Assembly: GCA_030390025.1 (NCBI GenBank)
Contig: CM059432.1
Location: forward strand, 92,692,001 to 92,756,000
DNA length: 64,000 bases
From: Squalus acanthias
Lineage: Eukaryota
Direction: 5' to 3'
A program made the translations under genes and the position numbers. Positions 1 to 17,400 of the stretch are shown piece by piece. A model generated the notes under the pieces. That model made no database searches and had not been told where the DNA came from. It worked only from the letters and a program-made list of their open reading frames with translations. Position 1 is the stretch's first letter. Each line of letters starts with the position of its first letter.

Positions 1-945
1 AATCAAATAGCATTAAAATATAACCCAGCAGAGTAAAATGCACTACAAAATGAATGCAAGCAAAAATTCAGTAGCAACTCTGGTCCAAGTTTAAAATTCT
101 AGTATACCGTTCCCATTCAGAAATCACAATCAATGCATAAAATGTCTTACAAAGTAGTCAAGCTTCAAGTAATCAAGATTCAACTGTAGAGAGGTTACAA
201 GTGTTAGTGTTAAGTGATCCATCACATAGGTTAAAAGGGTAAGTATATGCTGCCAAATTTACATATAATCCTAAAAGGAGAATTCCTGACATTTAGCAGG
301 GTTACTCAAGTCACATGATTACTGTATTTTATGCTTCAGAATTGGTGGTTAGAGGCAACTTGTAACAGATACTTGTTGAACTTCCCCCAAATATAACATG
401 GAAGTTCTGCTCCAGCACCATTATGAATGGTGTTTGTAGTCCACAATCCATTCAGTGTCAAACTGGGGCATGTCACGAATGTTTGTTTCCAGAGTGCTTC
501 CAACCAGCAGTCCCTACTTCTTTTTTCTCCCCCCCCACCCCACTCCTCAATTTTTCTTTCCTCATGGTTCTGACTTGAGATGGAGTATAGCGCTGATGCC
601 AGCAGCCCTCCAGTACCTCATGCAAGTGGCTATTCTTGGCACACAAGCCTCGACAATAACTGCCAGGCCATTTAACCAGAGGAGAAGGGCATCACAACAG
701 AGCCAGATCCTGCCCTCACATGATGAACTTGTGTACTTTCTGGTGTTGGTCACTAGAAAGAGATCAAAAGTGTCAACCCCTAAATGATTTCTTCCTCTAT
801 AGCCGAGTGGCATTGAAGCCAATTGCTACACCCCTACTGACGACCATATCACCTAAAACACCATAAAGCAGAACTTGGGACTTCTGAATGATTAGTACCT
901 AAATAGGTGGTGCATTAACCAGCAGTTCTAAAGCATAAAACAGTA

Positions 946-949
<4 letters not shown>

Positions 950-986
<37 letters not shown>
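950..986. repeat. (GA)n microsatellite
   Basis: Pure AG dinucleotide run. Confidence 0.95.
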
Positions 987-988
<2 letters not shown>

Positions 989-2719
989 AAATGTAAAAGT
1001 ATGTTCTTTCATAAAAAGGATTATGGCAAACTTCAGTAGAATATAATTCCTGTTTTGAATAAAGTCAACAGACAGGCAAATATCCTCATTATGCTATGAT
1101 TTGTCTGCAGCAGTACAATTGCAACACTTCAGAGGGCCTGAAAATCAATCCATTCAGAGACCGATCCAAGGTGGTATGCAGGCAATGAAATAATGCTGTG
1201 GCAATTCTAGCAATGCCTGGGCCCAAACATTCCTGTGGCCGGAGAGAGCAGAAGTCACATTTACACCCATGAGACAGAGGGAAGGCAGTTTATGGGCTGC
1301 ATCCCGGCTCATCCATCTCGTTTGGTCCAGACCTTTAAATTCCGGTCGGGTGGGGGAAGGGTAGGGAATATTTATCTGCCCTCTTCATACAAAGGGGGTG
1401 TTTTTGGGTAACTGTGGAATTCCCAAGCTTTCCTGGGAAGTTTCTCCCTTTATACCCTTGACAGACCTCAGCAAAACTCATACCAGTTAAAACATGGCAT
1501 GAATCCCTTTTGAGGCCTTTTACGGGCCCCAAACCTTCTCTACAGCAATGTAAAATAGATTGCAGAGGTGCTTCATTACCATCTCTAGTTGTAGTGGGAG
1601 CTGAAGAGATTTAACAAAAAAAAATTATTCATCCCACTTAGGCTTCTTTACAAAGGAGCATTGGCTCAATTTAGCATGGCCACCACTGATGTGCTCTTGC
1701 ATGTGCAGGTAGGCCACACTCTCTATGCAAAGGACCCGGGTCCGTGGAACATGTATGCACGCACACACATTTCAAGTTTATGAAAACCGGAAGAAAACTG
1801 TGCGCAATCAATATGTTTAATGCATTTCACTTGTGCAAACAGGTTAGTAAAAGAACCCAAATTAAATGTTTTTGAAAGAAAGCTGAAGGTTGCTCTCCTG
1901 GTGAGATATCTTGCTACAACAGAGATGCAGCAAAATAGGTGTATAGAGGTATAATGTCAATCCAGAAATAGAGTTCTTCCTTACTTCAAAAAAGGACAAG
2001 TCACAAGCACCAGTGAATGAGCTATCACTTCAGAGAATCACCATACCCGATTTCAGAAATTCTCTTTTGAAGGTTATATTTTTGGATTATTATATTTGTC
2101 AGCAATTAAGCACTGCAACAAACTCACTTCACACTTCATGTTCAGCAGCTGTTCAGTCTTGAAAATCAATACTAAACTACAGCAGTACTAAACTACATAT
2201 GTTCAGAACAGGACAAACATGATGTCTTAGGCAAGCCTTATAGGGCCAAAAAGTCTTAATACAGTATCTGCAAAACCTTACGATCATTTTTCCAAAACTA
2301 GAAAGGGAAAAACAAGTGTACATGCAGGAACACAATTTAACCAGCTGCTTACAGACATTACTAAGTTATTTTCAAATGGCAAGTCTGTGTGTCCAGAGCT
2401 GTAAGCTACTACATTGTTGGATATCCTTATTGGGAGAAGGGGGGGGGGCGGAGAAAGGAGAGAATACTATGGGTTTTGTGGCAAATAAAGCAGTAAGAAA
2501 AACAACTGCATTACCTGCCTTCAAATGGAAGCACCCTCTACATACTGGAGAAGGAAGCCCAAGTTGACAAGAGGGGAAAAGTGGGGTTCCTCCAAGACAG
2601 TGGGACATCATCCAAGTGAATTTTCCCCTCTGGTACTGTATAGAGATGCTCTTTTGGGAAAAGGCATCAGTTCGTTTCCAGACGTGGCAGAACACAAGAG
2701 TTAACTATTTTATAACATA

Positions 2720-3144
2720 CAGGAAACTTTCGTTTATCCGGCACCCAAATATCCGGAATTCTCGCTTAACCGGCAAAAATCATCCTCCGAAAACTCCTCT
2801 CAAATAACCGGCAATGTTGCCGAGTCGCAGTCGAGTCTCCGCGAACGCCGAGCACTCCGAAAACTCCTCTCAAATAACCGGCAATGTTGCCGATCCCGAG
2901 TCCGAGTCCGAGTCCGCGAACGCCGATTTAGTCAGTAGGGGTACTTTTCAAAAGTGCCACTACTCGGCCTCCTGGCGCTGTCGGAAGTCTGAAACACTGC
3001 AGTAGCAGGAGTTGATTCTCCCGCGCTGCCTGGAGTCTCTTTGTTAAAAATAGCCTCGGTAGATATAACTCTCCGTTATCCGGTACTTTCGATAAACCGG
3101 CACCACGCCGGTCCCGTCGATGCCGGATAAACGAAAGTTTCCTG
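2720..3144. mobile_element. Non-autonomous Tc1/mariner (pogo/Tigger-like) MITE
   Basis: Perfect 24-bp TIRs CAGGAAACTTTCGTTTATCCGGCA / TGCCGGATAAACGAAAGTTTCCTG flanked by TA (2718-2719, 3145-3146). CpG-rich, with an internal ~70-bp tandem duplication. Confidence 0.9.
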
Positions 3145-6100
3145 TATAATCCTCCAACAGGTTGAGTGAGATCTTGGTATGTAGAGGATACTTCCATTCA
3201 AGAAATGAAGACAAAGAATGTTTAGATTGCCTACCTTTGCTCTTCATTCCAGCATCTTCCACAGGTCACACTGTCAGTAGTATTTAAGAGGAGGGGTTGG
3301 TTGTGGGAGGAAAGGCAACCTTCTCAATCTAGACGAAACACCTTCCTCCAGAACAGACCTGCCAAAGTGCAAGTCATCCTTAACCAACAAACCCAAGGAA
3401 TAATGCTAAGAAAAACTATGGGTTGTTCCAAGTCACAGCCTTGCATATGCAGTTTATAGTAACCTAAAGGTTAGCCTACGATGCAGATCTAGTAGAATGA
3501 CTATTAAAATTCTACCTGAAGACTTCTACATGCTATATACTACAATGCAGAATACATTACAGCAGTTGTTTTTCCAGTCATTGTTTCAACCATAAATATT
3601 TGTTCCATGTGATACAAATAGTTGGCTAATAGTCTCGAACATCAATATAAGCCAAAGTCGTATTTGTAGCTATAAAATGGAATCTATGCTCGAACACATG
3701 TTCCTGAGGTGGAGGACAAGGTAAAGGGAAAATAGTTTTGCTGCAAATTAAACTAAATCACTTTGGTATAAATTTGAGGTAGCCAGAGGATATCTACCAT
3801 GCCAGACTAGATACAATTGTTTAAGTACCAATGCCTGGAGTTCACTTTTCCAGTTGAGACAAGCACAATGAGAAAAGGTGTTCTCCACAGTAGAAATTTT
3901 AATTTTTGAAATGCAAAAACTTGAAAAGAAAATACAGTACACAAGGTTACAAAGTACTATGTTAAATTCCCAAGGAAAAGTTGAAGGAACAAAGTAGGTC
4001 CAGATTTCCAAACTTCTTTCACAAAACAGAATACAAAATTATGTTCCTGAAAGTGAACAAGCTTGAGAAAAGCTAGGAAAGCTTGCATTAGCTGCATCAT
4101 GAAACCCCACTAGAACTTGGTTGTAGACCTAGGCTTAAAAGATGTTGAGCACACTCCAAAATATCCAAGATTTCACATGACAATAAATACATGTTCACTG
4201 AAACTAGATTGTAGCTAGCCAATCTCCCAAGGTAGACTGCATGAATAATTATCAATCTTCTTTTCATAGATGTTTGTGCAGTTTGTACAATACCCAATAT
4301 TTCTTCCAAGTTTTTTGGGGATCACAAGATAATGGAAACATAACCTTTCATTTCCTGACTGTAATGGCATTCGTTAAAAGGCAATTCCTGTATATGTAAG
4401 GAATTTCAAGTCAAAATAAAAGGGACAGACCTTGTTTCTGTATTGAATTCCACTAGTAAGGTGTGAAAAATAAACAGCTCCTCTCTGCACCCTCATTAGT
4501 CCCATGATGGAAGTGTCATTGGTGCCAAGGGATAGGGACTGGGTTTGGGCCAGATGGGTTAGACTTTTGTGCATATCTGCTGATTAAGGCAGGCCAGAAT
4601 GTTTCTTCTGCACAGTCCTTAAAGCGGCCTTAATACAAGCCTTTCCTTGATCTGCAGGCAAGAAAATATTCACCCGGAAATTTATTGCTGAGCCGCAGAG
4701 CATGTTCCTAAATTAGAAATAATAGAAGCATACGGCTACCAACATGGTACAGTGAAGCATGTAAATATGGTCTACTCTGGTTATCACAGCCCAACTCCTA
4801 CCAAGATGAAGTAGAACAAACTAGAGGAGCTTCAAGGCTCAAAAGAGGTGTTTAATTCCAGTCACCTAGTAAGCTATTTCAGTACTGTGCACTTCTTAAG
4901 CAGTTTTAAGAAAAACATACATTTGGTTAATGAATAGCAAATATAAGCTGCCCTTTTGTTGATCTTCCTGTAAACCTCAACATGGGCCCTGTTCAGCAAC
5001 AAGGACTTTTGGGGGTGTAATCACCAAACTTCACTAATGCTGATCTGTGGGGTGTACAGCGAGTTTCAAACAGGTGGTACACGGGGAGCTGATTAGAATG
5101 TACAAGTGGCATCAATAGTGTGCTGTCTCTAAGGTTTAAACACTACTTCAGATCAGAAAGTAGAGATTAAGCTCTTGAATGGGGCATGGGTGTAAGTTTT
5201 AAGGGACCAAGGTGACACTTTCACAATGTATTATGGCTCCTTTGACTTATACCTGTTGCAAATGCTACTATGAAGGACAGGCCGCCATCTCTAGAGCTGG
5301 TCATTTCTTATATACAGAAAGAAAGAATTGACAAAACAGGTTTGTAGACACTTATAGGGTGAAGTCACACCATGTGATGTTAGCATGCAAACAGGTAATT
5401 GCATTTGTATGCTAAAACCATATAGCATGATTTCATCCCATTGATTGTTCACCAGCAACTTTGAAAGTCAAAGAATATAATCTAACAGGTCTAGAAGAGG
5501 ATTTTGCCAATAACTTAGGAAAATTCTATGAAATCACCACCTTTGGAATGAAAAGAGTAACCAACTTTGGGAAAATTCCAGGGGGGAAAAAATAGCTTTA
5601 TACAGTACAGAGGAGAAAGATCATGACCACGTTCAGTGATTTTCCCTGTTGTCAACCTGGGTTCAACTCTAATGGTATTGGAATGAGCAAGAATATTGAG
5701 ATTCTCTTCAAAAATGATTTTAATTCCGAACGGAAAGCGATAGAGTGATGGATCAGAGCAGCTCAGATTTAAAATATTGCACCATTTTAAATAGAAAAAA
5801 AAAGTACATGCACAAGCGTCTGACTTGTAATCTGTTCCAATTCAGCGTATTTCTAAATTTTCTAATTTTGCATTTGTAAGTTTTCCATTTAGAATTTATT
5901 TCCAAATTTCTGGAGCTACTCTCTAGTAATCAAATGCTGTTGGCAACACTGGACATGTGGAAATTTCTGTTTGGTTGAATACAGTATTCCTGCATACATT
6001 TTGAAAATGACAATTTTTTTAAATCAATTTTGAAGTTTATAAATGGATATCTATTAATTTCAAGATAAAAGTCCCAAGAAAGAAGTAGAAGGGAAGCAGA

Positions 6101-8449
6101 ATTCATTTTGATTATATATTCAAATCTACTATATAAAATATTGAAACTAAATAATCTTAACAGTAAACATTTAATTTATTGTCAAGCGCAGAAAATGTGA
6201 GTTTAAAAATAAATATGTTCAACACGTAAATAGTAAAATACACTGGTAAGGGTGGGGGGGGGCGGGGGGGCGGTATGGAGAAGAGAAACCATGATACACT
6301 TAACTTCAGGCTACAAAATTCTCCGTGTGGAATGCAGGTTTTGAACAAACTACACAAATCTAGGAAGTTCAGATATTTCACTAGTAATCCAGACAATAAA
6401 AGCCAACAAAAGTATTGCATTAATAAAAAGATTCAAATTCTAGGATTGAATAACCACGAGAATGGTTACCATATTCTCATCCTTGTATTTCAATAGCAAT
6501 TACAAAATGGGCCCAATGTTGGTGTCATTGCACTAGCATAACTGGATGGTAAAGTGTAATTTTAAGCAACATTTATAGTATAGTAGAAAATAATTTTCCC
6601 ACCATCATACAGACAAGAATCTAGTTATATAAATCCAATTCAGATTCCACTGCCTGAAGATGTTAAAACTACCAAACAGTTGCTACGTTAAAGGGGAATT
6701 TTACTTCTCATTTTTCTTGGGAGCTGGGGGAGGAGAAGAAAGGAAAGAGGGAAGGAGAACAAAACAAAATGTGAACTTCTATTCCTTCAGATTCCAGTTA
6801 AATTTCTGATTTGATTTACAATAGCCTTTTTAGATATTTACACCACATACAACTTAACTGCTGCAAAATTTTCCATATTAAAGAAAACATCGGTTTATCT
6901 GTCCGTGATAAACCAAAATATCAAGATGCACAGGACTTAGTCTAAAATACTTTAACTTCAATATTAATAAGTTAATTGCTGTCACAGAAAACTGTAATGG
7001 TCTTCAAGTAGACCATCGTCATGGTCTCTAAAATTCATCAACTAAAGTTAATATATGCACCCCTCAAAACAGACGACAAATACACAAAGTTCTGGATTGT
7101 TAAAGCATTGGGTTGATTTCAACATTCAAATCATTCACAACAGCCAACTGACAGTTAATTTTACTTAAAACATTATACTCCAAAAAGGGTAGAAACATAA
7201 ATTTCTATGTATATCTAATCAAGTTTACTTGAGAAATTAGAGGTCTAACAAGAACTGGAGAGATCCTGGAAAACAACAAAATTATTCAGTTCTGTTCGGG
7301 CAATCTCAACAAAGTAGAAATCACTCGAGGTGATGCAGTAATAGGTATTTAAACTATTATTTTTGATACAGTTATGTGACCACTGCTGTAAACATGAAGG
7401 GCTATTATGGCAAAATAAGTTTTACTTGTTGGTTCATACTTCCAACTAGGTTAGGTCACACTTCCAGTTAAAATTTTAAAAAATTGCAACTACATCAATC
7501 CAATAAGTTTTATTGAATTTCATGTACCTTACAGTTGGGCATGCAGAATGTAACACTTCTCTTCCATGAAAAAGCACACAAAGTGATGACAGAAAATGTC
7601 TTCTGAAACAAGTATTGCATTAACAGAAGGGTGATGGAGCACCAGGAAAATCATGTGGTGGTCCAAGGCCTACAATGCGCCTGAAGAACCAGCAGCATGT
7701 ACAAATGAGATTGGCAGCCAGTGCGCAAGTTGTGCACCAGGTCTATTAGGCCTTTGACTTGTATTTGCATGGCGTTGCTTACCCCATATGTGGCAGAAGG
7801 CCAAAGCAGCAAAGCATCCATTTGGAACAGGTGCTGAAAGGGAAGCTGCCTACAAGTTAAAAACAAAATCAACCACCTCTGCACTTTGCCCCACCTTCAC
7901 CAGAAAAGTGCCCAGCGCATAATGAGCAGTCAGCCAGATGATGCAACTCTGAAACTCTTGCTGCACAAGAGACATGCCTGGACACAACTAATGCACAAAG
8001 GCTAACCACCTATTATTTGGGGAGGCCAGCTCATTTGTGCCAAGGTAATTGCGTGGCAATTAGGCAAAATCATCAGTCCCAGGATGTTTTATCATTTCAA
8101 ATGAGCATAGATAGATCACACTCTGCTCACCTCAGTTCCACAGTGCTGACTAGGTTAAAATGGGCAAGTGCAACCATAGTGCAGGACACAATTAAAATAC
8201 TCCACATAATTTCTATCACACATGTAACAGAAAGTCCATTATACCACCCATTGCCTTCTCCAAACAGATTCAGATCCATCTGCACCTCAGGAAATAAAAA
8301 TACATCATGAAAAGAAGGCAAGGTGTCCAACCTTTTGGAACAGGGGGCTAAAGCGACAATGCATAACCATTCAGTGGGCTGTTTATGACTCAAAATCCAA
8401 GTGCCATGTACAAAATCCAAATCCCCATGCTAAAAATTGAATCTTCCCA

Positions 8450-11215
8450 TGCAGAGACATGGTTGCAAGGTGGCCAAGGTTGGGAACGAAATGTTCCAGG
8501 GTACTTGACGTTTCGAAAACACAGGCAGAGTGGAAAAGGAGGACAGTAGCGAGAAAGGATCTTGGCTCGGACGATCAGGAAATAGAATCAGTATGGGTGG
8601 AGATAAGGAATAACAAAGGGCAGAAAATACTGGTAGTAGTAGTATATAGGCCCCCTAACAGTAACTGTACCGTTGGACAGAATATTAATCAAGAAATAGT
8701 AGGAGCATGCAACAAAGGTAATGCAATAATCTTGGGGGACTTTAATCTTCATAGACTGGACAAATCAAATTGGCAAAGTTAGTCTGGAGGACGGGTTCAT
8801 GGAATGCATTCGGGACAGTTTCCTAGAACAATGCGTCATGGAACCAACCAGGGAACAGGCTATTTTAGATCTTGTACTGTGTAATGAGACAAGGTTAATT
8901 AGCAATCTCATAGTAAAGGATCCTCTGGGGCAGAGTGATCATAATATGATAGAATTTCACATTAATTTTGAGATTGACTTGCCTAAGTCTGAAACTAGAG
9001 CCTTAAACTTAAATAAAGGCAATTACAGAGGTATGAGGGGCGAGTTGGCTAAGGTAGATTGGAAAAATAGATAAAAGGTATGGCGGTAGATAAGCAATGG
9101 CTAGCATTTAAAGAAATATTTCATAATTCGCAACAAAAATACATTCCATTGAGAAACAAAAACTCCACGGGAAAAGTGATCCAACCGTGGCTAACTAAAG
9201 AAGTTAAGGATATCATTAGATTGAAAGAAGTAGTTTATAATGTTGCAAAGAATAATAGTAAGCCTGAGGATTGGGAGAGTTTCAGAAACCAGTAAAGGTT
9301 GACCAAAAAAAAGATAAAAAAGGGAAAAAATAGAATGAGAGAAAACTAGCAAGAAATATAAAAGCAGATTGCAAGAGCTTGTACAAGTATGTAAAAAGGA
9401 AGAGAGTAGCAAAAGTAAACATTGGTCCCTTAGAGGCTGAGACAGGAGAAATTATTATGGGGAATAAGGAAATGGCTGAAACGTTAAACAAATATTTTGT
9501 ATCTGTCTTCACAGTAGAAGACACAAAAAGCATACCAAAAATGGTGGGGAACCAAGGGTCTAATGAGGGTGAGGAACTTAACGTCATGAATATAAGGAGA
9601 GAAAAAATACAAGAGAAACTAATGGGACTAAAACCCAACAAATCCCCTGGACCTGATGGCCTACATCCTAGGGTTCTAAGAGGTGGCTGAAGAGATAGTG
9701 GATACATTGGTTTTGATCTTCCAAAATTCACTAGATTCTAGAATGGTCCCACCGGATTGGAAGGTCGCAAATGTAACACCGCTATTCAAGAAAGGAGGGA
9801 GAGAGAAAACAGGGAACTGCAAGCCAGTTAGCCTGACATCAGTCGTCAGGAAAATGCTGGAATCCATTGTTAAGGAAGTGGTATCAAGTCACTTAGAAAA
9901 TCATAACATGATTAGGCAGAGTCAACATGGTTTTATGAAAGGGAAATCGTGTTTGACAAATTTATTAGAGTTTTTTGAGGATGTAGCTAGCAGGGTAGAT
10001 AAAGGGGAACCAGTGGATGTAGTATATTTGGATTTCCAAAAGGCATTCGATAAGGTGCCACATAAAAGGTTATTACACAAGATTAGGGCTCACGGGGTTG
10101 GGGGTAATATAGTAGCATGGATAGAGGATTGGTTAATGGACAGAAAACAGAGCGTAGGGATAAACGGATCTTTTTCAGGTTGGCAGGCTGTAACTAGTGG
10201 GGTGCCGCAAGGATCAGTGTTGGGGCCTCAGTTATTTACAATCTATATTAATGACCTAGATGAAGGGACCGAATGTAATGTATCCAAGTTTGCTGATGAT
10301 ACAAAGCTAGGTGGGACAGTAAGCTGTGAGGAGAACACAAAGAGTCTGCAAAGGGGTATAGATAGACTAAGTGAGTGGGCAGTAAGGTGGCAGATGGAGT
10401 ATACTGTAAGGAAATGTGAGGTTATTCACTTTGGAGGAAGAACAGAAAAACAGAATATTTTTTACATGGTGAGAAACTTTCAAATGTTGGTGTTGAGAGA
10501 GATATGGGTGTCCTCGTGCAAGAAACACAGAAAGCTAGCATGCAGGTACAGCAAGCAATAAGAAGGCAAATGGCATGTTGGCCTTTATTGCAAGGGGTTG
10601 GAGTACAAGAGTAAGGAAGTCTTGCTACAATTGTACAGGGCCTTGGTGAGACCACACCTGGAGTATTGTGCACAGTTTTGATCTCCTTATCTAAGGAAGG
10701 ATATACTTGCCTTGGAGGCGGTGCAACAAAGGTTCACTAGATTGATTCCTGGGATGATAGGGCTGTCCTATGATGAGAGATTGTGTAGAATGGGCCTATA
10801 TTCTCTGGAGTTTAGAAGAATGAGAGTTGATCTCATTGAAACATACAAGATTCTGAAGGGGATTGACAGGGTAGATGATGAGAGGTTGTTTCCCCTGGCT
10901 GGAGTGTCTAGAACTAGGGGGCATAGTCTCAGGATAAGGGGTAGGCCATTTAAGACTGATGAGAAGGAATTTCTTCACTGAGGGTTGTGAATCTTTGGAA
11001 TTCTTTGCCCCAGAGGGCTGTGCATGCTGAGTCTTTGAATATGTTCAAGGCTGAGATAGGTAGATTTTTGGACTCTAGGGGAAATCAAGGGATATGGAGA
11101 TCGGGCGGGAAAGTGGAGTTGAGGTCGATGATCAGCCATGATCTTATTGAATGGCGGAGCAGGCTCGAGGGGCGTATGGCCTACTCCTGCTCTTACTTCT
11201 TATGTTCTTATGTTC
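8450..11215 (+). mobile_element. CR1-clade LINE, near-complete ORF2 (APE endonuclease + RT), disrupted
   Basis: Motifs [46 protein letters not shown] and FADD occur across several frames. 3' tail tcttatgttcttatgttc. Confidence 0.93.
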
Positions 11216-12007
11216 AAAATCCAATCCTCACATGCAGAAAATCCAAGCACAGCCATGCAGTAAAACTCTTCACAAAAACACACAAAAAACTCTTAGCTTT
11301 CTTCTCTTTCTAAACTGCTTGCCTGCATCCTCTTCTACACGCCGGTCTGGTCCACTAAGGACTGCTCCTCACTGCCCCACAGTTTGCAAGTTGGAAACTT
11401 TCAAGCTCTAAACTTCCCTGCTCTTAAAGCTGCTCCCAGATTGGTTCAAAAATGTTGCTTCCTTGGTGCATTTGGACCGATAAAAGGAGCAGCATTTTTG
11501 AATGATTCATTCAGGAATCGCCTTTTCCAATCTTCAAGGCCCAGGGAGTTTGAACCACTATGGGAAGGGTTTGTTGCATGCAAACAGAAGGAGTGAACTG
11601 CAGGCAAGCAGAAGGAGGCTCGCAGGCTGTGTTGGACACTGCTGCAGTATCAGATTACAGGGGACAAACATTGGAACAAACTGGCTAAACATGTGAACTG
11701 CTACTACATGATTACAGGGCAAAAAGAATGGAATCAAAATGAAAGAGGGTAGGAGAGAGAAAAATACCACAGAAAACAAATGCAAATGCAAATTTGAGAA
11801 TGGACATAGAATTGGAAAGGAACTGTAAGGAAGAGAAGCCCCCTTTTGACAATTTTCAAGCTGGACATTAAAACCTGCTGAGCTGTGGCAAAGCAGCAAA
11901 ACCAGACGGTGCGATCAAGAAGGAAGTGTAGCTAAAGGAGACGTCTGTGTAAACAATAATGAGAAGTCGCACAACACCAGGTTATAGTCCAACAGCTTTA
12001 TTTGAAA

Positions 12008-12044
12008 TCACAAGCTTTCGGAGCGCTGCTCCTTCTTCAGGTGA
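12008..12044 (-). ncRNA. Mirror copy of the hammerhead motif, on the TPD52 sense strand
   Basis: Exact reverse complement of 12151-12187 within the palindrome. Confidence 0.7.
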
Positions 12045-12150
12045 AGTGAAGAAATACATATGGGCACAGCATAAATAGTCAGAGAACAATGCCAGTCGAC
12101 TGGCATTGTTCTCTGACTATTTATGCTGTGCCCATATGTATTTCTTCACT

Positions 12151-12187
12151 TCACCTGAAGAAGGAGCAGCGCTCCGAAAGCTTGTGA
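12151..12187 (+). ncRNA. Minimal type-I hammerhead ribozyme motif (Penelope-associated)
   Basis: UCAC-CUGAAGA-A-GGAGC(AGC)GCUCC-GAAA-GC-UU-GUGA: core boxes, stem II, palindromic stem III (AGCU), stem I UCAC/GUGA. Confidence 0.7.
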
Positions 12188-12548
12188 TTTCAAATAAAGC
12201 TGTTGGACTATAACCTGGTGTTGTGCGACTTCTCACTTTTGTCCACCCCAGTCCAACACCGGCATCTCCGCATCATGTGTAAACAATGAGGAATTAGACT
12301 TTGACGAGATAACAGAACTCAATGGGCCTCTTCAATAAACAATCCTCATCAGAAAGTTTGCCAGCTAGATGGTTGAGATTTGCGTGAGCTATCCAGCCAT
12401 TCAACTGTTAGTGGTCTTTACATGATGGAAATTTACTGAAAAGGAGGTTTTAGATCATGCGGGCTTTAACTTTTAAACAAAAATCGCGATATATTATTGG
12501 TTATCATGATCTAAGGCTATCATCGATAGGTCAATGAGGCCTTGGTGA

Positions 12549-13139
12549 TGTAACATCCTGTCCACCATTGAAAGGAAAAGATACAAGAGAAGCTGTTACG
12601 GTAACTTCATTACTGCAGTCGGAAGGTGGTGGCCTGGCCAGTCATCTCACCTACGAGGATCAGACTGCAGTCATGGGGTCGGAAGGAGAGCTGCAGTCAA
12701 CAAGAAGGGAAGCCGACCGATCATCGGAAGGAGAGCTGCAGTCAACAAGAAGGGAACCCGACCGATCATCGGAAGGAGAGCTGCAGTCGAGGGGTCGGAA
12801 GGAGAGTTGCAGTCAACAAGTAGGGAACCCAGCTGATAGTCAGAAGGAGAGCTGCAATCAACAGGAGTTGGCCACTTCGGGGTGATTGTATGACCAGTTA
12901 CTTAGAACATATTTGGGCATTGTATTGCTGGAGCATCTTTATTGCTGAGAGTAGACTAAGAAGGGCATTGTATTGCCAGGCAGACGAAGAAGGGCATTGT
13001 ATTGCCATGTAAATCCATAAGCATTTTTTTCCCCTTTTCTCTCTTCTTTTCCTTTAATAAACGACCTTATTTAACTTAAGAGCTTTTGGGTGATTCACTA
13101 ATTATTTCCCTTGTAATTCGCAGGTCAAAACGAACTACA
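12549..13139 (+). mobile_element. Possible solo-LTR-like element with internal tandem repeats
   Basis: TGT...ACA ends, AATAAA near 13056, a 45-bp tandem array and GGGCATTGTATTGC x3. No TSD found and boundaries are uncertain. Confidence 0.35.
12679..12865. repeat. 45-bp minisatellite (TCGGAAGGAGAGCTGCAGTCAACAAGAAGGGAA-CCGACCGATCA), ~4-5 full or partial units
   Basis: Units start at 12679, 12724, 12769 (partial), 12795 and 12840. Confidence 0.9.
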
Positions 13140-13916
13140 AGCCTGAGAATAGGACAGCAAGGCTTACAGAACATGCAAGCAAGCTCATTCAGTGGGAGGG
13201 GTTAGAAAAGGAAGATGTTTGAATGTAATAGAAAGATAACCTAGGGAGTGTTTCACCAGCAGGTAAATACTTAGATCATACTCTAATCAGGAACTGATTA
13301 CTTTTACACAGTACAGAAAACAGTCAATTGCAGATTGAGGAAGAGAGCAAAAAAACTAAACAGAAATGGGGAGGGGAGAAAAAAACCAAAGTGCTATGAA
13401 TGAACAAAATCTACTTGCATCTATGAAGCCAAAAATAACAAATATAGAGAGTGTAGTCTTCAAAAATTATGGGAGCAAAATGTATTTTGCTCACGACAAG
13501 AACAGGGTGGGGGAGAGGAGGAACAGACACAGAAATTGAAAGTTATATTTGGGTAAGGTAAGCAACAATTTACTAAAGACCTTTTGTAGTAGCAAGTCAC
13601 AGCAACATTAATTTACAATGGTGTTACCTGTATCAGTACATTCTAAAGGTACTGCAGCACTTGTAAATGTTCCAAACTATCAGATAATCCAATTTGACTT
13701 AAGCAGCTAGTACATTTACAAAGGAATACTTGAGTATAGACTCAGAACTGTGAACTTGTCACTTACGAACAATTTCAAATCATAGTCAAACAGGAAAACA
13801 AGCTTGAAATATATTCATGGTAATGTAGATGCAAGATTCTATCTTTTGGAACAGTTTTAAGTAAAAATGCAGCAAAAATTCATTATTTCTACTCGAGAAA
13901 ATAGCTTGAGACTTAC

Positions 13917-14018
13917 CTAACATCTTCAAATTTTTTGGTAATGGCAGAACCAAAATTAGTAAATGCAGAGGAAGCCTTCTGACCAGCCTGAGAGAGGGTT
14001 TCAGATGTCTTCTTGAAT
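13917..14018 (-). CDS. TPD52: TPD52 exon encoding the D52 motif
   Basis: ttctacag|A TTC AAG...GTT AG|gtaagt, 102 nt, phase 2-2. It reads FKKTSETLSQAGQKASSAFTNFGSAITKKFEDV(R), the D52-family signature. Confidence 0.93.
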
Positions 14019-14409
14019 CTGTAGAATTTAAAATTAAAAAAAATATCTTGCCTAAAGCCATCACATTTAAACATAGCACAAAAAAGGTGATAGGAAAATG
14101 TGTGACAACTTTCAGATTGGTTCCACGCTTGTTTCTCTGTACAAGTACATCTCAATTATTTCCAAATCCTAGGTCTGCTTCCCTTCTTAGATCTTTCACA
14201 TTTTCTATGCATAATGTGCTGAATTTACATCATATCCTGCAACTCACCCAAGAGCAAAGCCATGGGAAATATATAATACTAGCCAATCTCCCATAGGATG
14301 CACACAGGGAGACAAGACTCAGTGTAGTCTTCAGGTGAAGTGGGTTAGAAGGCAAAAGATAACTGTACTAGCGTTCACAAAGGAACACGTCGCCATTTTT
14401 TATCATATA

Positions 14410-17400
14410 TTCAAGGAACATCGGAACAGGAGTAGGCCATTTAGCCCCTCAAGCCTGTTCCGCCATTCAATGAGATTATGGCAGACCTGCGACCTAACTC
14501 CATATACCCGGCTTTGCCCCATATCCCTTAATACTTTTGGTTAACAAAAATCTATCAATCTCAGATTTAAAATTAACCATTGATCTAGCATCAATTGCCA
14601 TTTGCAGAAGAGTTTTCCCAAACTTCTACCACCCTGATGTGTAGAAGTGTTTCCTGAATTTCACTCCTGAAAGGTCTGGCTCTAATTTTTAAGACTATGC
14701 CCCCTAGTCCAAGACTCCAAAACCAGTGGAAATAGTTTCTCTCTCTACCCTATCTGTTCCCCTTAGTACCTTGAAAACTTTGATCAAATCACCCCTTAAC
14801 CTTCTAAATTCCAGGGAATACAACCCTAATTTGTGTAATCTCTCCTTGTAATTTAACCCCTGGAGCCCAGGTATTATTTTGGTAAACCTACGCTGTACGC
14901 CCTCCAAAGCCAATATATCCTTCCTACGGTGAACTGCTCGCAGTACTCCAGGTGTGTTTTAGCCAGGGCTTTGTATAGCTGCAGCACAACTTCTACCCCC
15001 ATTGTATTGTAGTCCTCTAGATAAAGGCCAGCATTCCATTAGCTTTTTTGATTATTTTCTGTATCTGTTCATGACATTTTAATGATCTATGTACATGGAC
15101 CCCCAATGTTTTTAGCTTTTCACCATTTAGAAAGTACCCTGTTCTATCCTTTTTAGGTCCAAAGTGGATGACCTCACATTTGCCTACATGGAAATCCATT
15201 TGCCACAATTCTCCCATTCACTTAATCTATCAATATTTCTTTGTAATTTTATGCTTTCATCTACACTGCCTGCAATGCTGCCTATCTTTGTGTCATCAGC
15301 AAATTTGGATATGTGGCTTTCTATCCCATCATCTAAGTCATTAATAAATACAGTCAACAGTTGATGCCCCAACACAGATCCCTGCGGGACACCACTAGTC
15401 ACATCCTGCCAATCAGAGTACCTGCCCATTGTCCCTACACTCTGTCTCCTGCCGCTCAGCCAATTTCCTAACCAAGTCAATAATTTGCCTTCAACCTTAG
15501 TTAACAGTCTCTTATGAAGGACTTTATCAAATGCGTTCTGGAAGTCCATATAAATAACATCCATAGACATTCCCCTGTCCACTACTTTAGTCACCTCTTC
15601 AAAAAATTCAATCAGGTTCGTCAGGCATGACCTACCTTTTACAAATCCATGCTGGCTCACTCTGATCAACCTGAAAATTTTCAAGGTGTTCAGTCACCCT
15701 ATCCTTATAGACTCTTAGTAATTTCCCCAACAACAGATGCTAGGCTAACTGGTCTACAATTCCCTGGTTTCCCTCTCACCATTCTTAAATAGCGGAGTGT
15801 ATGCGCAATCTTCCAATCTGAAGGAACGGTTCCTGAATCGAGAAAAATTTGGAAGATTATACTGTAGTTAAGGCATCGGCAATGTGCTCACCTACTTCCT
15901 TTAAAACCCTGGGATGGAAACCATCTGGTCCTGCGGATGTCACTCTTTAGCGCCATTATTTTCTTCATTATTGTTATTTTGCTTACATTACTTTTGTTGC
16001 ATCCCTGTCCCCGATTCAGTATCAGTTTCCTTGGGATTTCCGGCATGCTATCCTCTCCCGCTACTGTAAATACGGACGCAAAGTACTTATTCAACATGTC
16101 TGCCATTTCCTCATCATTGACAATATCACCGTAATCAGTTTTCAAGGGGCCAACATTGCTCCTGACCACCCTCTTTCCTAAACTATAAAAATTGTGTGTT
16201 GATTTTGATATCCCTTGCAAGTTTCTTTTCATATTCCCTTTTTGTAGCTCTCTGTTTTGTCACCCTTCACTGTTCTTTGTACCATTCGCCAGGATCTGTG
16301 TTTTTTTGCATTTTTGTATGCTTTTTCTTTTAATTTTATATAGTCTCTTACCGCTTCAGTCGCCCATGGCTTTCTTTTGGCAAGCAGAGCTCTTGCCCCT
16401 TACGGGTATAAACTGGTCCTGTATCACCTTAAATTTTTTTTTTTTTTTAAAAAACATCTCCCACTGATCTTCTGTCGTTTTACCCATTAACAGATTTGCC
16501 CAGTTTACTGTGGACAGTCTCTGTCTCTTTGCATTGAAATCAGTCGTACCAAAATGTAGAATCTTAGTAACTGTTTCACGTTTCTCCCTTTCAAACACTA
16601 CGTTGAACTCGATCATGTTATGATCGCTATTAGATAATTGTTCACACACCATTAGGCTAGTAACTAAATCTGGCTCATTACTCATTACTAAATCTAATAT
16701 GGTATGCCCATTGTTGGTTCTAGGTCATATTGTTGCAGAAAACTATCCCGGACACACAAGAAATTCACTACCTTTCTGACATGTGCCAGTCTGCTTATCC
16801 CAATCTATATGAAAGTTAAAATACCCCATTTAAACCACTCTGCCTTTACTACATGCCCATCTAATCTCTGCATTTATACAATCTACCACTTCACAGCTAC
16901 TACCAGGGGGCCTATACACAATTCCCACTAGTCTCAAATCCTTTTCTATTTCTTAATTCTATCCATAAAGTCTCCACTGCCTGCTTACCTCTCATTATAT
17001 CACTATTTCCTCGGGTAGAGGCAGCTGTTACAAGGGGGCATAACTATAAGGTGCATGGGGGGAGATATAGAAGGGATGTCCGAGGTAGATTCTTTACTCA
17101 GAGAGTGGTTGGGGTGTGGAATGGACTGCCTGCTGTGATAGTGGAGTCGGACACTTTAGGAACTTTCAAGCGGTTATTGGATAAGCACATGGAGCACACC
17201 AGAGTGATAGGGAGTGTGATAGCTTGATCTTGGTCTCGGACAATGCTCGGCACAACATCGAGGGCCGAAGGGCCTGTACTGTGCTGTACTGTTCTATGTT
17301 CTATATCCTCTCTTCTCACTGAAGTAATTTTATCCTTAATCACGAAGGCTACTCCTCCCCCTCTACCATTTTCCCTATCTTTCCTGTAGACCTTATAACG

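Follow-up and report, generated by a model that had tools for sequence, protein, structure and literature searches.

In the TPD52 gene of Squalus acanthias, a 30-nt, frame-preserving, exon-like element on the minus strand (2515..2544; positions are counted from the first base of the window, the whole 64,000-nt stretch analysed) may be a cryptic poison-type microexon that is silenced by two abutting predicted RNA structures, a tentative reading to which slightly less than an even chance is given. The predicted closure of both ends is likely to keep the element out of the mRNA, as judged from the folding models; we infer that it is spliced at some time and that this splicing is regulated. The stop-bearing exon of this intron that is demonstrably spliced is another one, 124 nt in length.

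The earlier note on this DNA had read the TPD52 gene, the intron, the frame, the helix and its strand bias correctly, and its assumption that the region belongs to the phase-2 intron holds. The upstream constitutive exon (13917..14018, minus strand, 102 nt, phase 2) is 100% identical to Chiloscyllium TPD52 proteins over the matched part, and downstream exons of 27 nt (G000:C8:92691371-345), 42 nt (G000:C8:92691101-060) and 49 nt (G000:C8:92689988-940) are located just left of the window; the first two represent the small alternative exons that the note had placed at this point in D52-family genes. The body of the element (2544-2515), its candidate acceptor (2545..2587, minus strand, with a pyrimidine tract, an AG-free zone of 43 nt and a CAG) and its GTAATG donor are found on the minus strand as described, the AG of the acceptor being encoded in the genome. 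Spliced after the 102-nt exon (14018-13917), the element keeps the frame, also as claimed, and its sole stop is the TAG at 2540-2538 (in-frame UAG, 2538..2540), the A of which, at 2539, pairs with U. Premature stops elicit NMD when they lie more than 50-55 nt ahead of the last junction; the stop of the element lies at least 72 nt (23 + 49) ahead of it, provided that the last exon is the one at G000:C8:92688775-650. Microexon-like pairs of splice signals gave 49 matches, covering only 0.33% of the 568 kb scanned, under a rule tuned to include the 30-nt candidate; this rule, like the window used for the donor hairpin described below, was picked after the candidate had been seen.

The acceptor side is covered by a helix of 25 bp. 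Its 5' arm (3177..3201, minus strand) starts 33 nt past the donor of the 124-nt exon, and its 3' arm (2521..2545, minus strand) comprises 24 nt of the element and the acceptor G at 2545, which is the first paired base. On the minus strand, 3201-3177 and 2521-2545 form 25 consecutive pairs, 21 Watson-Crick and four G-U, with a duplex energy of -37.0 kcal/mol on the sense strand of TPD52, while the other strand reaches -27.0 kcal/mol with internal loops; the unbroken 25-bp complementarity with its four sense-strand wobbles, proposed previously, is confirmed. In 150 dinucleotide shuffles of the 2574-nt MITE-free region, a helix of 25 bp was never reached (mean 15.4, maximum 21), and only two longer helices occur in 24 kb of sense strand, both repeat-derived. 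The complementarity of the two arms is beyond chance. The helix itself is a predicted structure: in the fold of the minus-strand region, the acceptor G and the UAG are paired, with predicted pair probabilities of 0.75-1.0 throughout the helix, irrespective of whether the MITE is included. An Rfam scan of 1-14500 returned four sub-threshold matches, none of them on the arms.

A second predicted structure lies on the donor side. A local hairpin of 9 + 5 bp (2480..2519, minus strand; -17.1 kcal/mol, z -5.2) buries the candidate donor; its energy was reached in none of 500 shuffles, and comparably strong folds are found in one of 1929 GC-matched windows and in two of 5053 non-MITE windows of 41 nt. 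The five real donors of the TPD52 gene, by comparison, fold at only -2.5 to -5.3 kcal/mol. The hairpin begins one base past the end of the 25-bp helix, so that the two predicted structures adjoin and between them extend over the acceptor and the donor, each of which would be locked.

The loop between the arms contains a 427-bp, TA-flanked MITE with a terminal helix of 30 bp (2718..3144). Its site is empty in sequencing run X1, it is absent in run X9, and its summed contig depth is ~10,000 in runs X1 and X5. The MITE is a recent insertion in the loop and no part of the device; it extends the loop from 204 nt to ~630 nt. The donor hairpin, the MITE between the arms and the 124-nt exon are all three absent from the earlier note.

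The 124-nt exon (3235..3358, minus strand) carries an in-frame TGA at 3276-3274 and is spliced in run X9, where a joint with CT..AC ends (L010 1671-5535) has a depth of 258 and a loose end equals the upstream exon. Its tail occurs in five proteins of shark and ray clusters (P0081, P0099, P0109, P0135 and P0160) out of 483 retrieved, a set that holds 120 of 2585 and 150 of 533 proteins among the matches listed and large clusters to 15 members; among named proteins of sharks and rays, four share this tail without a difference. The product is predicted to be an NMD substrate or a short C-terminal isoform, of 156 residues. A tail-only protein search with residues 117-156 of P0081, which covered cluster representatives and is silent on bony vertebrates, yielded no candidate.

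Sixteen runs were found, all in the form of contigs, and four of them (X1, X5, X9 and X10) were examined. Only X9 is informative on microexon splicing, at the level of contigs: it contains both the 27-nt and the 42-nt exon, at a depth of 508, the only joints there skip the 30-nt element, and a contig joins across it; the site of the UAG is covered by one X9 contig. Runs X5 and X10 have zero cover at the bins of the 42-nt exon and the candidate, and X1 has no joint at microexons, so that the silence of these three is no evidence. The junctions that the earlier note had proposed to look for are not listed in any of the four runs, one of which expressed the microexons. Likewise, the element is present, in either reading, in none of the 97 chondrichthyan-cluster proteins with this junction. 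The X9 contig that runs past the element and its absence from these proteins are what one would expect if the exon is silenced or cleared by NMD. A premature stop is not in itself enough to hide an exon in this intron, since the 124-nt exon is visible in contigs as well as in annotated proteins. Of the proposal that the element is either a structure-masked poison exon or an exon opened by editing, the masking part has gained from the predicted donor hairpin; both branches stay hypothetical, with no junction listed and 0/97 proteins.

In organism C, both arm regions are found on one contig. Counted over regions, 3 of 120 nt differ around the 5' arm and 19 of 284 around the element, relative to a background of 274 differences in 2599 nt (10.5%) in five pieces (P 0.0009 and 0.017, respectively); the best-conserved block, with 3/120 and 3/169 differences, contains the 5' arm of the helix. 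The matching introns of two paralogs on C9 and C11 of this genome have no comparable helix, the best being 21 bp with 13-15 Watson-Crick pairs. A short C11 match to the candidate acceptor was rejected as no donor is present there. Teleosts and this genome alike have a 33-nt exon in frame at the same position of the paralog TPD52L1; the reading of the candidate and the teleost TPD52L1 insert both start with S-M, a likeness too short for homology, and blastn with the candidate lists no match at the 33-nt exon on C9.

Silencing of the element could proceed in the following manner: Transcription would reach the upstream arm first, 33 nt beyond the donor of the 124-nt exon; after a further ~200 nt (630 where the self-folding MITE is present), this arm would pair with the acceptor G and the greater part of the element. 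The local hairpin would then close over the candidate donor, and the spliceosome would pass on to the 27-nt exon or one beyond it, the pattern observed in run X9. The locks might be relieved by a protein that binds the upstream arm, by a helicase or when splicing is faster. The element would then be included, and its stop, 72 nt or more ahead of the last junction, would direct the transcript to NMD; A-to-I editing in the helix, if any, would be a by-product.

A different role for editing, doubtful yet worth weighing, is that ADAR converts the UAG to UIG in the helix before splicing, in which case an edited transcript would encode 10 further residues after the ALPS-region exon and unedited ones would be degraded. 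For a poison exon, neither the 3n length nor the lone UAG, inside the helix and with the most favourable ADAR neighbours, is required; both fit this alternative better. Among the 13 adenosines of the helix, the A at 2539 alone has a UAG context, 6 bp from one helix end and 18 bp from the other; hADAR1 and hADAR2 prefer a 5' U and a 3' G neighbour (PMC3113232), and the earlier note had stated that ADAR favours UAG in duplex RNA. Genes with an A_deamin domain are present at six loci of this genome (ADAR type unassigned), the paralog TPD52L1 hosts its 33-nt exon at the same position, and NARF exon 8, with UAG to UGG at >97% (PMC1852406), provides a precedent. An edited, stop-free isoform, however, should be stable and visible, and the joints of X9 (one run, contigs) only skip the element; edited peptide motifs occur in 0/483 proteins (isoform lists incomplete), and hence no lineage is seen with a genomic Trp either. 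Many selective editing sites are A-C mismatches, whereas the A at 2539 is paired with U. Moreover, an A-to-G stand-in at this position, G approximating inosine, weakens the helix by only 0.3 kcal/mol, and thus editing alone would not unlock the acceptor. In its fullest form, which seems somewhat unlikely, this alternative would have a single-copy, 25-bp editing-complementary sequence and the donor hairpin hold the UAG exon unspliced until ADAR recodes the stop; ADAR activity would then decide whether TPD52 transcripts decay or yield a membrane-trafficking isoform longer by 10 residues, next to the conserved 124-nt truncating exon, in a non-repeat setting in cartilaginous fishes.

As no splicing of the 30-nt element is observed, there may be no exon at this site. 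The structures could serve the 124-nt exon by tuning its donor, shortening its downstream intron or hiding a decoy acceptor and donor, with the element never an exon; although quite unlikely, this would accord with a 5' arm just past the donor of that exon and inside the best-conserved block of organism C, with its splicing in X9 and its identical tail in the four named proteins, and with the X9 contig that joins across the element. Neither the persistence of intact, frame-keeping splice signals under the structures nor a separate hairpin exactly on the candidate donor would be explained. The donor hairpin is equally left unexplained by a neutral relic, i.e. an inverted duplication of some age, or the degenerate ends of a transposon, together with a chance pseudo-exon, which is decidedly improbable. 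Such an origin would be in line with the two young foldback elements in the same intron, with the lack of a similar helix in the two paralog introns and with transition-type decay, which presumably yields G-U-compatible differences fairly often. The arms do not behave as terminal inverted repeats of a DNA transposon, the origin that the earlier note had named as fatal to its proposal: each arm region has one match in the genome, itself (lower bounds; the search skips very common words, and lone 25-nt matches would escape it), no contig pile-up occurs at the element, where contig depth is low, and no target-site duplication of 2-9 nt is found at the outer arm ends, except for 2 matching nt that are offset by 3 nt. 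The raised conservation in organism C also argues against neutrality.

If the reading as a silenced poison-type microexon is true, the trafficking protein TPD52, for which isoform choice is a key gap according to a 2026 review (PMC12896813), carries in sharks and rays a level of stop-bearing exons that has so far gone unrecognised: one, of 124 nt, is spliced and almost invariant, and the other is locked by two RNA structures, making it a small, experimentally tractable example in which structure masks the acceptor as well as the donor of a single microexon. In the titles and abstract starts of the open-access literature, no paper on the element was found (TPD52 with editing, ADAR or poison-exon terms), and no exon of TPD52 appears in one supplement of PMC11632617, which lists TPD52L1 exon 6b.

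The known inserts of the D52 family (PMC12896813), a serine-rich neural exon and a 14-3-3-motif exon, share intron and phase with the element and are both present here, as the 27- and 42-nt exons; in contrast to the element, they are stop-free coding exons across vertebrate proteins, and no stop-bearing or edited insert is described in the accessible part of that source. The GluA2 Q/R duplex (PMC3553965) is similarly an exon-intron helix with editing coupled to splicing, but its exon is constitutive, the recoding is sense-to-sense, and the duplex is long, imperfect and formed with a downstream partner. In humans, an enrichment of flanking complementary regions is seen at cryptic poison exons (25% vs 13%; PMC11632617). 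Structure-controlled poison exons of the BRD2/BRD3 type resemble the element as cryptic, PTC-bearing exons in a conserved intronic block, with long-range pairing predicted to promote skipping. Their complementary regions, however, are both intronic and loop the exon out, whereas in the present case the body of the element forms one of the arms and the donor lies under a further predicted hairpin; their inclusion and control were tested, while the present case is known from sequence and prediction. NARF exon 8 (PMC1852406) is likewise an in-frame exon with a UAG that lies in a duplex formed with intronic sequence upstream and is read as Trp on editing, and the element shares with it an editable in-frame UAG as the only stop and, by prediction, the location of this stop in sense-strand dsRNA in an ADAR-preferred context. 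The NARF duplex differs in being a long, primate-specific Alu-Alu duplex, and editing also creates its AG acceptor; the element has a genomic AG and a 25-bp duplex of single-copy arms, and its editing and inclusion are hypothetical. Should editing open the element, vertebrates would have a stop-removal exon that relies on a single-copy duplex dedicated to it; the primate Alu exon of NARF is the only vertebrate precedent found.

The 3.7-Gb genome searched (G000) contains the window at G000:C8:92692001-92756000, in which the upstream exon at 14018-13917 (minus strand) matches Chiloscyllium TPD52 proteins at 100% over the aligned part. The earlier note had assumed that the region still lies in a phase-2 intron, and this proved correct: the known alternative 27-nt and 42-nt microexons and the constitutive 49-nt exon were found just outside the window, which therefore places the candidate within the phase-2 intron of the known alternative inserts of the D52 family (PMC12896813). 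Also in this gene, two neighbouring stretches at ~20703 and 20258 (minus) resemble one and the same TPD52 exon segment, each at its beginning; a second search gave two overlapping matches. They are probably one exon end and a partial duplicate. Annotated proteins of sharks, rays, birds and lizards include TPD52 isoforms fused to an MRPS28 domain (PF10246; P0005, P0006, P0033, P0047 and others), suggesting an old read-through transcript.

The acceptor, 30-nt body (2544-2515, minus), donor, frame and single TAG (2540-2538) claimed for the candidate are all present in the sequence. Microexon-like signal pairs of its quality make up 0.33% of 568 kb (49 matches, real exons among them), a figure that depends on a rule tuned on the candidate itself. 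The claimed inverted arm likewise holds: 3201-3177 forms 25 unbroken pairs with 2521-2545 (21 Watson-Crick and 4 G-U), and the proposed sense-strand bias is reproduced at -37.0 kcal/mol, against -27.0 with internal loops on the opposite strand. Such a helix arose in 0/150 dinucleotide shuffles of the 2574-nt MITE-free region (longest helix 15.4 bp on average, maximum 21), and only two longer helices, both within repeats, occur on 24 kb of the sense strand. Predicted pair probabilities are 0.75-1.0 with or without a TA-flanked 427-bp MITE with a 30-bp terminal helix (2718-3144), which lies between the arms; their distance without it is 204 nt.

The arms are not the ends of this MITE, nor do they behave as transposon terminal repeats, which the earlier note had allowed they might be: each gave one match in G000 (a lower bound, at least one each), with no target-site duplication. 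In both X1 and X5, the summed contig depth over the MITE is near 10,000; together with an empty site in one X1 contig and its absence from one X9 contig, this indicates a recent insertion. The MITE is young and high-copy, and runs from organism A and from organism C, the latter the source of X9, lack it at this locus. Elsewhere in the intron, a near-perfect 138-bp hairpin with a 4-nt loop (11958-12237) is a foldback repeat present in many copies, with 86 match rows in G000, and a likely hyper-editing substrate; its Rfam miRNA matches fall below threshold.

The candidate donor is predicted to be paired as well, in a local hairpin (2519-2480) starting one base past the end of the long helix. Its -17.1 kcal/mol (z -5.2) was matched by 0/500 shuffles, and -17 was reached by 2/5053 41-nt windows outside MITEs in the 16-kb intron region and by 1/1929 GC-matched windows, namely the hairpin itself, although these rarity figures overstate the case since the stretch tested was chosen after the fold was seen. 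The five real donors of TPD52 fold at -2.5 to -5.3. Helix and hairpin would jointly cover acceptor G, body and donor. The A at 2516 (minus), two bases ahead of the donor, sits inside the predicted hairpin, in a geometry resembling that of the AMPA-receptor R/G site.

A spliced neighbour was found at 3358-3235 (minus), a 124-nt alternative exon bounded by an X9 contig joint (5535 to 1671 in the local coordinates L010, CT..AC ends, depth 258) and a loose end at 5661 that is the end of the upstream exon. It shifts the frame and stops after 27 codons, and its joint is roughly half as deep as those of the 27- and 42-nt exons (508). Its tail terminates at least five retrieved proteins: four named records (Chiloscyllium/Hemiscyllium, Heterodontus, Mobula, Narcine) are identical and differ from the window by one residue, and the fifth has two further differences. 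Near-invariant in sharks and rays, the 27-residue tail was found in none of the bony-vertebrate proteins retrieved; the exon may be read as a poison exon or as a short isoform.

The 5' helix arm begins 33 nt behind the donor of this exon, and it is conceivable, if unlikely, that the structures serve the 124-nt exon and that the 30-nt element is never spliced. The X9 isoforms skip the element, judging from contig joints and from the loose ends listed. No joint at it occurs in the complete joint table of 4 of the 16 runs found, of which only X9 expressed the microexons, and contigs drop rare forms. A neutral relic appears least probable. One X9 contig covers both arms, and in this single-organism comparison, gaps left out, organism C differs from the window at 3/120 nt in 3145-3264 around the 5' arm (binomial P 0.0009) and at 19/284 nt in 2390-2673 around the element (P 0.017), against a background of 274/2599 nt over five pieces; another X9 contig differs at 3/169 nt in 3332-3500 (P 1e-5). 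The stretch 3145-3264 is partly the 124-nt exon, its intronic share differing at worst at 3/90 nt (P 0.011).

An editing-gated coding exon, in which the UAG is recoded, is somewhat more plausible than either but still doubtful. The element is 3n long, its sole stop holds the one adenosine in UAG context out of 13 in the helix, U-A-G is the preferred editing context (PMC3113232), deaminase-domain genes occur at 6 loci of G000, and NARF offers a precedent for an editing-dependent exon (PMC1852406). A stable edited isoform, however, was seen neither in X9 contigs nor in retrieved proteins: the truncated or edited reading is borne by 0/97 chondrichthyan-cluster proteins with this junction and 0/483 overall, among the isoforms listed. 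Moreover, the UAG adenosine is paired as A-U, whereas A-C is favoured at editing sites, and a G stand-in costs the helix only 0.3 kcal/mol. In a TPD52L1-like paralog, a 33-nt phase-2 microexon candidate (G000:C9:77808953-77808921, minus) lies 317 nt into the matching intron and reads as the start of the P0343 insert; teleost D53 isoforms carry an insert of the same size beginning S-M. A coding microexon can thus occur at this place in the intron. The comparison with the candidate is one of intron position rather than of homology; no comparable helix was found in the matching introns of either paralog.

The reading that we tentatively rank as most likely is a cryptic stop-bearing microexon that long-range helix and donor hairpin would keep silent, and whose inclusion, on release of both structures, would lead to NMD; this ranking is a judgement. 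Among titles and abstracts listed, no paper on the element was found. The candidate may act in the manner of the BRD2 and BRD3 poison exons, which are under structural control (PMC10789245). With inclusion and conservation still putative, it is likened to them rather than assigned, and it differs from them in that the exon body itself would be paired directly.
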